Under the pieces are notes generated by a model. That model did no database searches. It saw only the letters and a program-made list of their open reading frames with translations, and was not told where the DNA came from. Shown here one piece after another: positions 39,793 through 41,218 of a stretch of DNA of 43,036 nt (positions are counted from its first letter, which is position 1; each line of letters begins with the position of its first letter). Origin of the DNA: Shigella phage SFN6B. Made by a program: the position numbers and the translations under genes. Location: the sequence record KY684082. One strand, written 5' to 3'.

Positions 39793-39975
39793 ATGGCAAT
39801 TGCAAAAGCGACCCAAGTGCAACAGCAGGAGCTGCTGCGTCAGCTGAACATTCTCGGTAAGGATCTGTATGCTATCCTTACCCAGCCACAGGATGTAGTC
39901 CAGACCGGCGCAGCGTTCGACGCTAAGATTGCTGCCCTAGAAACAGCTATTACCGCTGTGAAGTCGGCTAGCTAA
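39793..39975 (+). CDS. Hypothetical small protein (60 aa)
   Basis: ORF track 39694..39975 trimmed to ATG 39793 (AGGAGA upstream). Confidence 0.4.
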   Translation: MAIAKATQVQQQELLRQLNILGKDLYAILTQPQDVVQTGAAFDAKIAALETAITAVKSAS

Positions 39976-40379
39976 TGTATAAACTGGTCGCTGGGATACT
40001 GCTCGCGGTTACTCTGACTGGTTGCTCAGCGACCTCTGCACTAACCGGCTTAGTTGGCTCTAAGCCGGAAGTATCTGCACAGGTTGGTGCTGAGAATACT
40101 AAGCAGGTACTCGGGCTGAATAATAAGGTGGACTCCAGCACCACCAACAAAACTGATGTACAGGATTCTAACGTAGGTACACTGGATACTTCTAGCAAGA
40201 AGCAAGTGCAGACTATTAGTACTGGCACAATCCAGGCAGAGCGCCTACAGGTAGTTAACAATGATAGTTACAGCCTTATCCTCGCCGGATTAGCAGGGGC
40301 CAGCATTCCTTTGGTCTTCCTAGTAACCATTCTGGTGATTCGTAAGCTGTTCAGGAAGAAGGGTCAGCAGGATGATTAA
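39975..40379 (+). CDS. Spanin-like lipoprotein with C-terminal TM helix (u-spanin-type topology)
   Basis: N-terminal signal peptide with lipobox LTGC; C-terminal TM segment LILAGLAGASIPLVFLVTILVI followed by RKLFRKK. Confidence 0.55.
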   Translation: MYKLVAGILLAVTLTGCSATSALTGLVGSKPEVSAQVGAENTKQVLGLNNKVDSSTTNKTDVQDSNVGTLDTSSKKQVQTISTGTIQAERLQVVNNDSYSLILAGLAGASIPLVFLVTILVIRKLFRKKGQQDD

Positions 40380-40623
40380 AGTAGGGGATTTAGTTGGGGC
40401 AGACCTCGCTACCCGGGCAGGGGCAGCTGTTACTGGTGCCACAGTCTCAGGAGGCTGGTTGGCGGAGTTAATGAGTTGGAACTGGAGTGTGATCAGCTTC
40501 ATTACTGCGACGGTATGTGCAGTGCTAACCCTGGCGTGGAATGCATACTATAAACGACGCACATACAAGCTCCTAGAAGAGCACGCACGTAAGGGGGCGA
40601 TTAAATATGAGTTTAAGGACTAG
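40372..40623 (+). CDS. Pinholin-like holin
   Basis: 83 aa; Gly/Ala-rich weakly hydrophobic first segment plus second TM WSVISFITATVCAVLTLAW; charged C-terminus; immediately upstream of a SAR endolysin. Confidence 0.5.
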   Translation: MIKVGDLVGADLATRAGAAVTGATVSGGWLAELMSWNWSVISFITATVCAVLTLAWNAYYKRRTYKLLEEHARKGAIKYEFKD

Positions 40624-41218
40624 GGTTATAGCAGCACTCGCCGGGGCGACCATGCTCGGCGGAGCTATTACTGAGGTAGTCCAACACAACGAGGGTTTGA
40701 GCCTTACAGCATACAAAGACAGTGCAGGCATCCCTACAATCTGCTACGGGGAGACAAAGGGCGTCAAAATGGGCCAGAGAGCCACACTGAGCGATTGTCA
40801 GAAGCAACTGGTAGGATCAGCAGGAGAGCATGCAAAGGCTCTTGACGGGCTTCCTATGCAGCTCTCTGACGTAGCCTTAGTTGGGTCCATAGACTTCATT
40901 TATAACATAGGCGTAGCCGGCTTCAATGACAGCGCCGTGAAATGGCATCTCAAAAACCTTGATTACGCAGCGGCTGGAAAGGCTGTGCTGGACTGGCGTT
41001 ACATTAGTAAGTACCAGCAGAAGTCCCCAGGAACTGGTTGGGTTTATAAGGGTGGCAACCGCTGGATTTTTGACTGCTCCCAGTATACTAACGGGCAGCG
41101 CAATAAGGTATGCTGGGGCCTATGGGAACGTAGGCAGTGGCAAGCAAAGGCTATTGGTAATCGGTATGACTCATTGGAGTCTGCTGTTAATGCACTCATG
41201 AAAGGACAGGGGATATAA
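40607..41218 (+). CDS. SAR endolysin (T4-lysozyme-like muramidase, GH24)
   Basis: N-terminal Gly/Ala-rich signal-anchor RVIAALAGATMLGGAIT; catalytic region HNEGLSLTAYKDSAGIPTICYGETKGV (E...D...T triad pattern). Confidence 0.85.
   Translation: MSLRTRVIAALAGATMLGGAITEVVQHNEGLSLTAYKDSAGIPTICYGETKGVKMGQRATLSDCQKQLVGSAGEHAKALDGLPMQLSDVALVGSIDFIYNIGVAGFNDSAVKWHLKNLDYAAAGKAVLDWRYISKYQQKSPGTGWVYKGGNRWIFDCSQYTNGQRNKVCWGLWERRQWQAKAIGNRYDSLESAVNALMKGQGI

Follow-up and report, generated by a model that had tools for sequence, protein, structure and literature searches.

The host-lysis cassette of Shigella phage SFN6B, a KP34-like module predicted to encode a u-spanin, a probable pinholin and an SAR endolysin

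Three overlapping genes of Shigella phage SFN6B lie directly ahead of the tailspike gene, and the locus raises the question of which lysis functions they encode and how these might together open the layered envelope of the host. The window analyzed here (the whole 43,036-nucleotide stretch, sequence record KY684082) is a Drulisvirus genome, and its nucleotide identity to the genomes of Escherichia and Klebsiella drulisviruses is ∼90 to 92%. All positions below are those of the window, and all features described are on the + strand.

The open reading frame (ORF) listing of the window placed the three genes exactly where a preliminary description had located them: a gene for a protein of 134 amino acids at 39975 to 40379, a gene for a protein of 83 amino acids at 40372 to 40623, and a gene for a protein of 203 amino acids at 40607 to 41218. 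The overlaps of 8 nucleotides (40372 to 40379) and 17 nucleotides (40607 to 40623) between consecutive genes were likewise as first reported. The sequence TAATG is found at both ends of the cassette; the ATG of the first gene overlaps the stop codon of an upstream ORF of 60 amino acids, and the stop codon of the third gene overlaps the ATG of the tailspike gene. These four junctions would fit a single late transcript for all three genes, which lie between terminase and tailspike, and translation of successive genes is probably coupled. The position of the spanin gene at the head of the cassette, together with its 8-nucleotide overlap, may couple translation of the holin to that of the spanin and so act as a timing or stoichiometry device. 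The numbers of promoter and terminator matches between 37000 and 43036 were no different from those in shuffled sequence, and therefore a regulatory element specific to the cassette cannot be claimed.

The same set of genes is found in Klebsiella phage KP34, in which gp54, gp55 and gp56 have the same order and lengths (134, 83 and 202 to 203 amino acids), the same 8- and 17-nucleotide overlaps and the same location between terminase and tailspike. The SFN6B proteins are orthologues of these three, with identities of 94.8% (spanin), 94.0% (holin) and 86.2% (endolysin), and the two cassettes differ by point substitutions only, the majority of which fall in the C-terminal third of the endolysin. 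The receptor-binding proteins encoded downstream, in contrast, are unrelated: an Sf6-like tailspike in SFN6B and the capsule depolymerase gp57 in KP34. Close relatives annotate the cassette as "unimolecular spanin," "holin" and "endolysin." None of the three cassette proteins reached a curated cutoff in NCBIfam, and the assignments below draw on other profiles, alignments and motifs.

The first protein begins with a predicted lipoprotein signal peptide (39975 to 40025), recognized by regular expression and hydropathy, within the N-terminal sequence MYKLVAGILLAVTLTGC. The signal peptide ends in the lipobox L-T-G-C, so that the predicted mature protein starts with C-S-A at Cys17 (codon 40023 to 40025). 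The match to the Pfam model LPAM_1 was weak and under the cutoff; however, in an alignment of seven homologues, with identity down to 34%, lipobox residues L14, G16 and C17 were invariant. An aspartate at position +2 after the lipoprotein cysteine is a Lol retention signal, which a serine at this position avoids. Because residue +2 of the SFN6B protein is serine rather than aspartate, the protein is expected to be sorted to the outer membrane. Cys17 is also the sole cysteine of the protein, leaving the predicted periplasmic part cysteine free. Spanins of the T1 gp11 family are characterized by a periplasmic domain that lacks cysteine and is predicted to be beta rich.

The other end of the protein carries a predicted transmembrane domain (TMD) at residues 98 to 122 (40266 to 40340; SYSLILAGLAGASIPLVFLVTILVI), a stretch of 25 uncharged residues with a mean Kyte-Doolittle hydropathy of 2.19, which is followed directly by the basic, predicted cytoplasmic tail RKLFRKKGQQDD. 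A hydrophobic segment with a K/R tail was present in all of the aligned homologues, and the motif PxVxAQxGAxNxKQ was conserved among them as well. A single-sequence AlphaFold2 (AF2) model placed a helix at residues 96 to 129 (pLDDT of 66 to 81 for this block) in a model that was poor as a whole (mean pLDDT, 57.5), with some confidence at the two terminal helices only and a pLDDT of <50 across residues 31 to 94, and it is uninformative on the beta content of the periplasmic domain. Both features proposed at the outset for this gene product, the lipobox and the C-terminal transmembrane segment, therefore stand.

A lipoprotein with a C-terminal TMD has the architecture of the prototype u-spanin T1 gp11, to which the SFN6B protein is 40% identical over 125 of its 134 amino acids (E value, 2e-25) and with which it shares the lipobox, the periplasmic motif and the C-terminal TMD. 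T1 gp11 complements the lysis defect of lambda RzRz1 (cited in PMC6139136). Kongari et al. (2018; PMC6139136) assign proteins to the T1 gp11 family at ≥40% identity over ≥40% of the length to a member, and include KP34, F19 and NTUH-K2044-K1-1; the SFN6B protein has 40% identity to T1 gp11 and 94.8% to KP34 gp54. It also matched PHROG 1804 ("Rz-like spanin") over its full length (5e-50), a tblastn search with it gave matches in 1,174 phage records, and its orthologue in phage Minorna carries the annotation "unimolecular spanin." As judged from its sequence, the gene at 39975 to 40379 is thus a u-spanin gene of the T1 gp11 family.

It had been proposed that this gene product has the topology of a u-spanin rather than that of an Rz/Rz1 pair, and the window agrees with the match to T1 gp11 in this respect, because no Rz1-type ORF was found. 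An Rz1-type outer membrane spanin embedded in the spanin gene was rejected because there were no alternative-frame ORFs of at least 30 amino acids on the + strand within it, and when all six frames of the window were scanned, the spanin gene was the only real gene with a lipobox. The sole other lipobox-like ORF in the window, at 27224 to 27421, is cysteine rich and lies out of frame within a gene for a 792-amino-acid protein, and it was rejected as a spanin. Given this single real lipobox gene, the match to the spanin profile, the 1,174 phage records and the invariant lipobox residues, the pattern is no product of chance.

Could the first gene instead encode a lipoprotein with another role, such as Cor-like superinfection exclusion, with some other factor disrupting the outer membrane? 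A match to PHROG 1119 (Cor) points in this direction, but it was weak (E value, 0.0054) and confined to residues 1 to 48, the region of the signal peptide, and a Cor-like exclusion lipoprotein was rejected on this ground. In addition, the full-length match was to the spanin profile, the homologue T1 gp11 is a spanin with an experimental test behind it, Cor proteins are without the C-terminal TMD, the gene sits within a lysis cassette and runs 8 nucleotides into the holin gene, and the window holds no alternative spanin candidate. It is therefore highly improbable that the first gene serves in exclusion rather than lysis.

The second protein matched the Pfam family PF04971 (Phage_holin_2_1, P21 holin S) over residues 27 to 67 with 27.6 bits, a margin of 1.6 bits above the gathering cutoff of 26, and matched the holins of PHROG 20 at 1.4e-16. 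In direct alignments it was closer to the S21-like holin EssD (31% identity) than to T1 gp13 (26%), and both of its hydrophobic segments aligned with those of EssD. The first, at residues 16 to 31 (40417 to 40464; AGAAVTGATVSGGWLA), is only weakly hydrophobic (Kyte-Doolittle value, 1.03), consists of glycine, alanine, serine and threonine to 75%, and extends over only 16 uncharged residues; in the EssD alignment it lies opposite the TMD1 region, and it is a candidate releasable TMD1. S21-type pinholins are class II holins in which TMD1 is of the SAR type. The second, at residues 38 to 60 (40483 to 40551; core, WSVISFITATVCAVLTLAW), is a strongly hydrophobic TMD (Kyte-Doolittle value, 1.81 for residues 38 to 56) that lies inside the Pfam match and is followed by a charged C-terminal tail. 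No dual-start (antiholin) motif was evident in the holin. The adjacent gene, overlapping by 17 nucleotides, encodes an R21-like endolysin as partner. The Gly/Ala-rich first segment and the transmembrane helix described for this gene product were thus both observed, and the Pfam match and EssD alignment support the reading of it as pinholin-like. Taken together, this sequence evidence suggests that the protein is S21-like and probably of the pinholin type.

A different topology has some points in its favor. The holin might have a single TMD and be class III-like, with its N terminus outside and its C terminus inside, so that the Gly/Ala-rich N-terminal segment would be periplasmic from the outset rather than a releasable TMD1. 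One transmembrane domain is annotated for KP34 gp55 by both PHOBIUS and TMHMM, T1 gp13 is likewise annotated with a single TMD, and ORF7 of phage JKP2 is reported to have one transmembrane helix, with the N terminus out and the C terminus in. The brevity and low hydropathy of the first segment in SFN6B are in line with these annotations. However, SAR-type TMDs are known from work on S21 and SAR endolysins to escape standard transmembrane predictors. The score above the Pfam gathering cutoff, together with the alignment of the first segment to EssD TMD1 and the composition rich in small residues that the two share, also argues against a single TMD, and Kongari et al. class such cassettes as pinholin plus SAR endolysin. 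We consider the single-TMD topology unlikely for SFN6B, and a holin of this kind may in any case still serve as the depolarizer for an SAR endolysin. It is somewhat more doubtful that drulisvirus holins as a group are distinct depolarizing holins with one TMD, oriented N-out/C-in, and a periplasmic Gly/Ala-rich head. The S21-like, pinholin-type reading is followed below.

The third protein matched the Pfam family PF00959 (Phage_lysozyme) at 7.7e-19 and had matches in the Protein Data Bank at ∼1e-8, namely, 7M5I, 3HDE (R21) and 4ZPU (RrrD). The preliminary description had called it a T4-lysozyme-like endolysin with an N-terminal signal-anchor-release (SAR) domain, a designation that these matches support together with its catalytic residues. 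The motif E29-x8-D38-x5-T44 spans 40691 to 40738 (GAG at 40691 to 40693, GAC at 40718 to 40720 and ACA at 40736 to 40738), and all three residues were invariant in an alignment with RrrD, T1 gp12 and the Minorna protein. The candidate SAR segment occupies residues 7 to 22 (40625 to 40672; VIAALAGATMLGGAIT), with a Kyte-Doolittle value of 1.82, a glycine, alanine, serine and threonine content of 62%, and arginines at positions 4 and 6 preceding it; E29 is seven residues past its end. The alignment with R21 and RrrD begins at residue 2 and hence covers the SAR segment, and residues M1, S2, L3, V7, A10 and G13 were invariant with RrrD and T1 gp12. Absence of cysteine from the SAR domain distinguishes the R21 type from that of P1 Lyz, which is activated by disulfide isomerization. 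The only cysteines of the SFN6B enzyme are at positions 46, 64, 157 and 169, so that the SAR segment is cysteine free. A single-sequence AF2 model of the enzyme was unusable (mean pLDDT, 37.4). The homologies and motifs support assignment of this protein as an R21-type SAR endolysin, a T4-lysozyme-like muramidase.

The N-terminal segment might alternatively be a conventional signal peptide, cleaved by signal peptidase I to yield a soluble periplasmic enzyme that is restrained by other means. For the orthologous endolysin of JKP2, a signal peptide is reportedly predicted by SignalP, and in SFN6B the small residues A20 and T22 stand shortly ahead of E23. Yet homology ties the segment to the SAR domain of R21 and RrrD, in an alignment that starts at residue 2 and contains several invariant positions, and its high content of small residues is typical of SAR domains. 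Sun et al. reportedly found in 2009, from a comparison of 3HDE with 3HDF, that the R21 SAR segment is not removed but is retained and joins the active fold. Thus, it seems very unlikely that the SFN6B endolysin loses its N terminus to signal peptidase I, and we treat the segment as an SAR domain.

Comparison with better known lysis systems shows which elements of the cassette are shared. In phage 21 and DLP12, as in SFN6B, a small PF04971 holin (EssD) is paired with a lysozyme that has the E-x8-D-x5-T motif and a cysteine-free SAR segment (RrrD), albeit at identities of only ∼30%; the spanin function in these systems, however, is provided by a two-component embedded Rz/Rz1 pair (rzpD/rzoD) rather than a u-spanin. 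In the related podophage phiKMV, a member of the Autographiviridae that encodes its own RNA polymerase, Briers et al. are said to have described in 2011 a pinholin (gp44), an SAR endolysin (gp45) and an Rz/Rz1 pair (gp46/gp46.1). The strategy of pinholin plus SAR endolysin is therefore the one seen here, but the phiKMV order is holin, endolysin, Rz and Rz1, with a two-component spanin. The contrast that the preliminary description drew between this order and spanin-holin-endolysin is correct as judged from PMC4411677, in which Eriksson et al. (2015) described the order u-spanin, (pin)holin and SAR endolysin in KP34-like phages, contrasted it with phiKMV, and gave a similarity of only ∼30% at 22% coverage in this comparison.

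Nearly all members of the T1 gp11 family adjoin a pinholin and an SAR endolysin (PMC6139136), and in T1 itself the homology extends beyond the spanin. The SAR endolysin T1 gp12 is a homologue of the SFN6B enzyme, and the relationship takes in the N-terminal SAR segment (27% identity; E value, 1e-12), whereas the SFN6B endolysin has an insertion of ∼31 amino acids and a C-terminal extension. Similarity to the holin T1 gp13 is weak and lies in the TMD and the C-terminal tail, and the SFN6B holin is the longer of the two. In T1 and other Drexlerviridae the genes run from holin through endolysin to spanin, in contrast to the spanin-first order of SFN6B. Phimunavirus cassettes have the same order as those of KP34-like phages (PMC6115819), and the order spanin-holin-endolysin was confirmed in the Phimunavirus phage Koot.

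The ORFs, motifs and homologies observed in SFN6B very probably represent a conserved lysis cassette of KP34-like (Drulisvirus) podophages, whose products would attack the three envelope layers in turn. What follows on export, timing, hole size, lipidation and membrane fusion is drawn by analogy from work on phage 21 S and R, P1 Lyz and T1 gp11. The endolysin would leave the cytoplasm through the host Sec system and then be anchored in the inner membrane, in an inactive state, by its weakly hydrophobic N-terminal SAR segment, while the S21-like holin would build up in the same membrane. At a set time, the proton motive force would be lost through small holes formed by the holin; the holes of S21-type pinholins are about 2 nm wide and depolarize the membrane without letting folded endolysin through. 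The SAR segment would exit the depolarized bilayer, and the lysozyme domain would refold to its active form and break down the murein; activation is expected to be of the R21 type because the SAR segment has no cysteine. The u-spanin, with lipidated Cys17 in the outer membrane and its C-terminal helix in the inner membrane, would thereby bridge the periplasm, and after breakdown of the murein mesh it would disrupt the outer membrane, most likely by fusion of the inner and outer membranes.

The SFN6B cassette is the standard host-lysis module of KP34-like phages. This arrangement was already known, having been published in 2015, and therefore the finding of the preliminary description is correct but ordinary. 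There is applied interest in the use of KP34-like endolysins against Klebsiella and Escherichia coli, but the window adds nothing to existing knowledge of the u-spanin mechanism or of endolysin application. With hundreds of deposited genomes carrying such a cassette annotation, its importance here lies mainly in correct annotation. The T1 gp11 family to which the spanin belongs is the largest u-spanin family and is common to T1-like siphophages and KP34- and PhiM1-like podophages, and the cassette as a whole is a published, genus-level trait that defines the KP34-like phages.

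Three overlapping genes on the plus strand occupy the region between a terminase large subunit gene (37546-39402, +) and a tailspike gene (41218-43014, +): a u-spanin (unimolecular spanin) gene (39975-40379, +; 134 aa), a holin gene (40372-40623, +; 83 aa), and a gene for a signal-anchor-release (SAR) endolysin (40607-41218, +; 203 aa). The preliminary description had the three genes overlapping by 8 and 17 nt; the open reading frame (ORF) list and the raw sequence agreed with it exactly in coordinates and placed these overlaps at 40372-40379 and 40607-40623. The spanin ATG shares the pentanucleotide TAATG (39973-39977) with the stop of an upstream 60-aa ORF, and the endolysin stop overlaps the tailspike ATG in the same manner (41216-41220). 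Because of such overlaps there is little or no intergenic space from terminase to tailspike.

The product of the first gene starts with MYKLVAGILLAVTLTGC, in which a short basic n-region and a hydrophobic core precede the lipobox L-T-G-C, with serine at +2; the lipobox cysteine is the only cysteine in the protein. Residues 98 to 122 (SYSLILAGLAGASIPLVFLVTILVI) are uncharged, with a mean Kyte-Doolittle hydropathy (KD) of 2.19, and are followed by the basic tail RKLFRKKGQQDD. The lipobox and C-terminal transmembrane segment noticed at the outset were thus both recovered. When all six frames of the 43 kb were scanned from every possible start codon, just two lipobox-like ORFs emerged, one of them this gene, so that the pattern is no chance match. 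The other, a Cys-rich ORF lying out of frame within a 792-aa gene, was discarded.

The initial assignment of this gene to the u-spanins, rather than to an Rz/Rz1 pair, was borne out when its product was compared directly with that of the u-spanin prototype, T1 gp11; the two share 40% identity across 125 residues (E 2e-25), and no Rz1-like ORF was found, either embedded in the gene or elsewhere in the window, in the ORF list or the six-frame scan. The protein also matched PHROG 1804 ('Rz-like spanin') over its full length (5e-50). Among the 1174 phage records detected by tblastn, ∼250 were Drulisvirus-like, at 85 to 98% identity; the bulk came from T1-like Drexlerviridae (35 to 50%), and Pectobacterium phages of the genus Phimunavirus matched at ∼45%. 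An alignment of seven members, with identities as low as 34%, showed the motif P-x-V-x-A-Q-x-G-A-x-N-x-K-Q and the L-x-G-C of the lipobox to be invariant, and every member had the C-terminal hydrophobic segment and a K/R-rich tail. A single-sequence AF2 model was confident for the two terminal helices only, not for the periplasmic domain, for which a beta-rich character is predicted. T1 gp11 complements a lambda RzRz1 defect, and its family, which includes members from KP34, F19, and NTUH-K2044-K1-1, is nearly always encoded next to a pinholin and a SAR endolysin; u-spanins lack periplasmic cysteines (Kongari et al. 2018, PMC6139136).

The second protein had been described as pinholin-like, with a Gly/Ala-rich segment and a transmembrane helix. 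Residues 16 to 31 are weakly hydrophobic (KD 1.03; 75% G/A/S/T), residues 38 to 56 are strongly hydrophobic (KD 1.81), and the C terminus is charged. The short first segment is compatible with a holin that has one transmembrane domain rather than two, and a single domain, from TMHMM or Phobius, is what the KP34 annotation, Eriksson et al., and the JKP2 paper give; this topology question is genus-wide and not particular to this window. Both hydrophobic segments nevertheless align with EssD, the S21-like holin of Escherichia coli prophage DLP12 (31% identity). This alignment, together with matches to Pfam P21 holin S (PF04971; 27.6 bits, gathering score 26, aa 27 to 67) and PHROG 20 (holin; 1.4e-16), supports an S21-like pinholin with two transmembrane domains, the first of the releasable Gly/Ala-rich type, as a still unproven topology. 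With a SAR endolysin as its partner, the protein is likely to function as a pinholin.

That partner, initially read as a T4-lysozyme-like SAR endolysin, has arginines at positions 4 and 6, then the segment at residues 7 to 22 (VIAALAGATMLGGAIT; KD 1.82; 62% G/A/S/T), with the lysozyme domain (Pfam Phage_lysozyme, 7.7e-19) directly after. Its closest solved structures (∼2e-8) include tethered and active R21 of phage 21 (3HDE, 3HDF) and the DLP12 homologue RrrD (4ZPU); the alignment begins at residue 2 and therefore covers the SAR segment. E29, D38, and T44, which form an E-x8-D-x5-T motif, and several positions of the SAR segment were invariant in comparison with RrrD and T1 gp12. Since the SAR segment has no cysteine, activation by R21-type refolding, not by the disulfide isomerization of P1 Lyz, is expected. 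Two features of the protein have no counterpart in R21/RrrD or T1 gp12: an insertion of ∼31 residues (YQQKSPGTGWVYKGGNRWIFDCSQYTNGQRNKVCW; roughly aa 140 to 170) with two cysteines, C157 and C169, and a C-terminal extension. Insertion and extension together (41024-41218; aa ∼140 to 203) are common to KP34 and Minorna, and no PDB match covered either. The single-sequence AF2 model (pLDDT 37.4) was unusable.

Two small conserved genes separate the terminase and spanin genes, one of 125 aa (39402-39779, +; PHROG 7128), which has an ATGA overlap with the terminase gene, and that of the 60-aa ORF (39793-39975, +; PHROG 7375). Their counterparts are KP34 gp52 and gp53, and neither protein had a transmembrane domain or a Pfam match. 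The 60-aa protein may have a regulatory role in lysis because its gene adjoins the cassette.

The 256 phage records matched by megablast of this region belonged almost entirely to Drulisvirus phages of Klebsiella or Escherichia (best identity, 89 to 92%). These matches, the ∼90 to 92% identity of the first 25 kb to Escherichia phages PSK2, ZH5, Minorna, and others, and the location of all long ORFs on the plus strand identify the window as a KP34-like Autographiviridae genome. Direct terminal repeats, annotated in the KP34 record at ∼216 bp, were sought in 1-43036 and none was present; because the window also ends 22 nt past the tailspike stop, the SFN6B sequence is probably a genome-length assembly without the terminal repeat or one trimmed at its ends. 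Strongly hydrophobic segments (KD19 2.3 to 2.7) are encoded by three small plus-strand ORFs in the early and middle regions (559-708, 49 aa; 15379-15591, 70 aa; 17034-17210, 58 aa), whose products may be small membrane proteins.

The downstream tailspike gene looks mosaic. Its N-terminal ∼105 aa resemble the anchor domain found in tailspikes from other Drulisvirus phages and from large coliphages (Pfam Tail_spike_N), and residues 277 to 598 are 93% identical to the Shigella phage Moonfish tailspike. The protein is 47% identical to that of Shigella phage Buco and, over 95% of its length, 39% identical to the Sf6 gp14 tailspike, which is known as an endorhamnosidase. These similarities point to an O-antigen receptor and suggest that the host is not an encapsulated Klebsiella but S. 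flexneri (Shigella) or an E. coli of a related O-type.

In the type phage, KP34, gp54, gp55, and gp56 are 94.8%, 94.0%, and 86.2% identical to the spanin, holin, and endolysin, respectively, and their genes likewise overlap by 8 and 17 nt. The orthologues in Escherichia phage Minorna are annotated as 'unimolecular spanin', 'holin', and 'endolysin', with the same flanking genes. The order spanin, holin, endolysin is found in Drulisvirus and in the Phimunavirus phage Koot, as reported for that genus (PMC6115819), whereas in T1 and other Drexlerviridae the homologous genes run holin, endolysin, spanin. The difference from phiKMV (holin, endolysin, Rz, Rz1) that had been pointed out also holds, and exactly this contrast was an argument for creating the genus (Eriksson et al. 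2015, PMC4411677). The observation is confirmed and its interpretation supported; the cassette is already known from the literature and database annotation, and this copy is no departure from the KP34 model.

A literature search for experiments on Drulisvirus lysis proteins found none. The present analysis shows sequence features and homologies, and we infer the cell biology from work on phages 21, P1, and T1. By homology, the cassette would run a pinholin/SAR endolysin/u-spanin pathway. The endolysin would be exported by Sec and held inactive at the inner membrane by its tether until holin triggering depolarized the membrane, which would let go the SAR segment and activate the muramidase. Once the murein was gone, the spanin bridging both membranes would disrupt the outer membrane, probably via fusion with the inner membrane.
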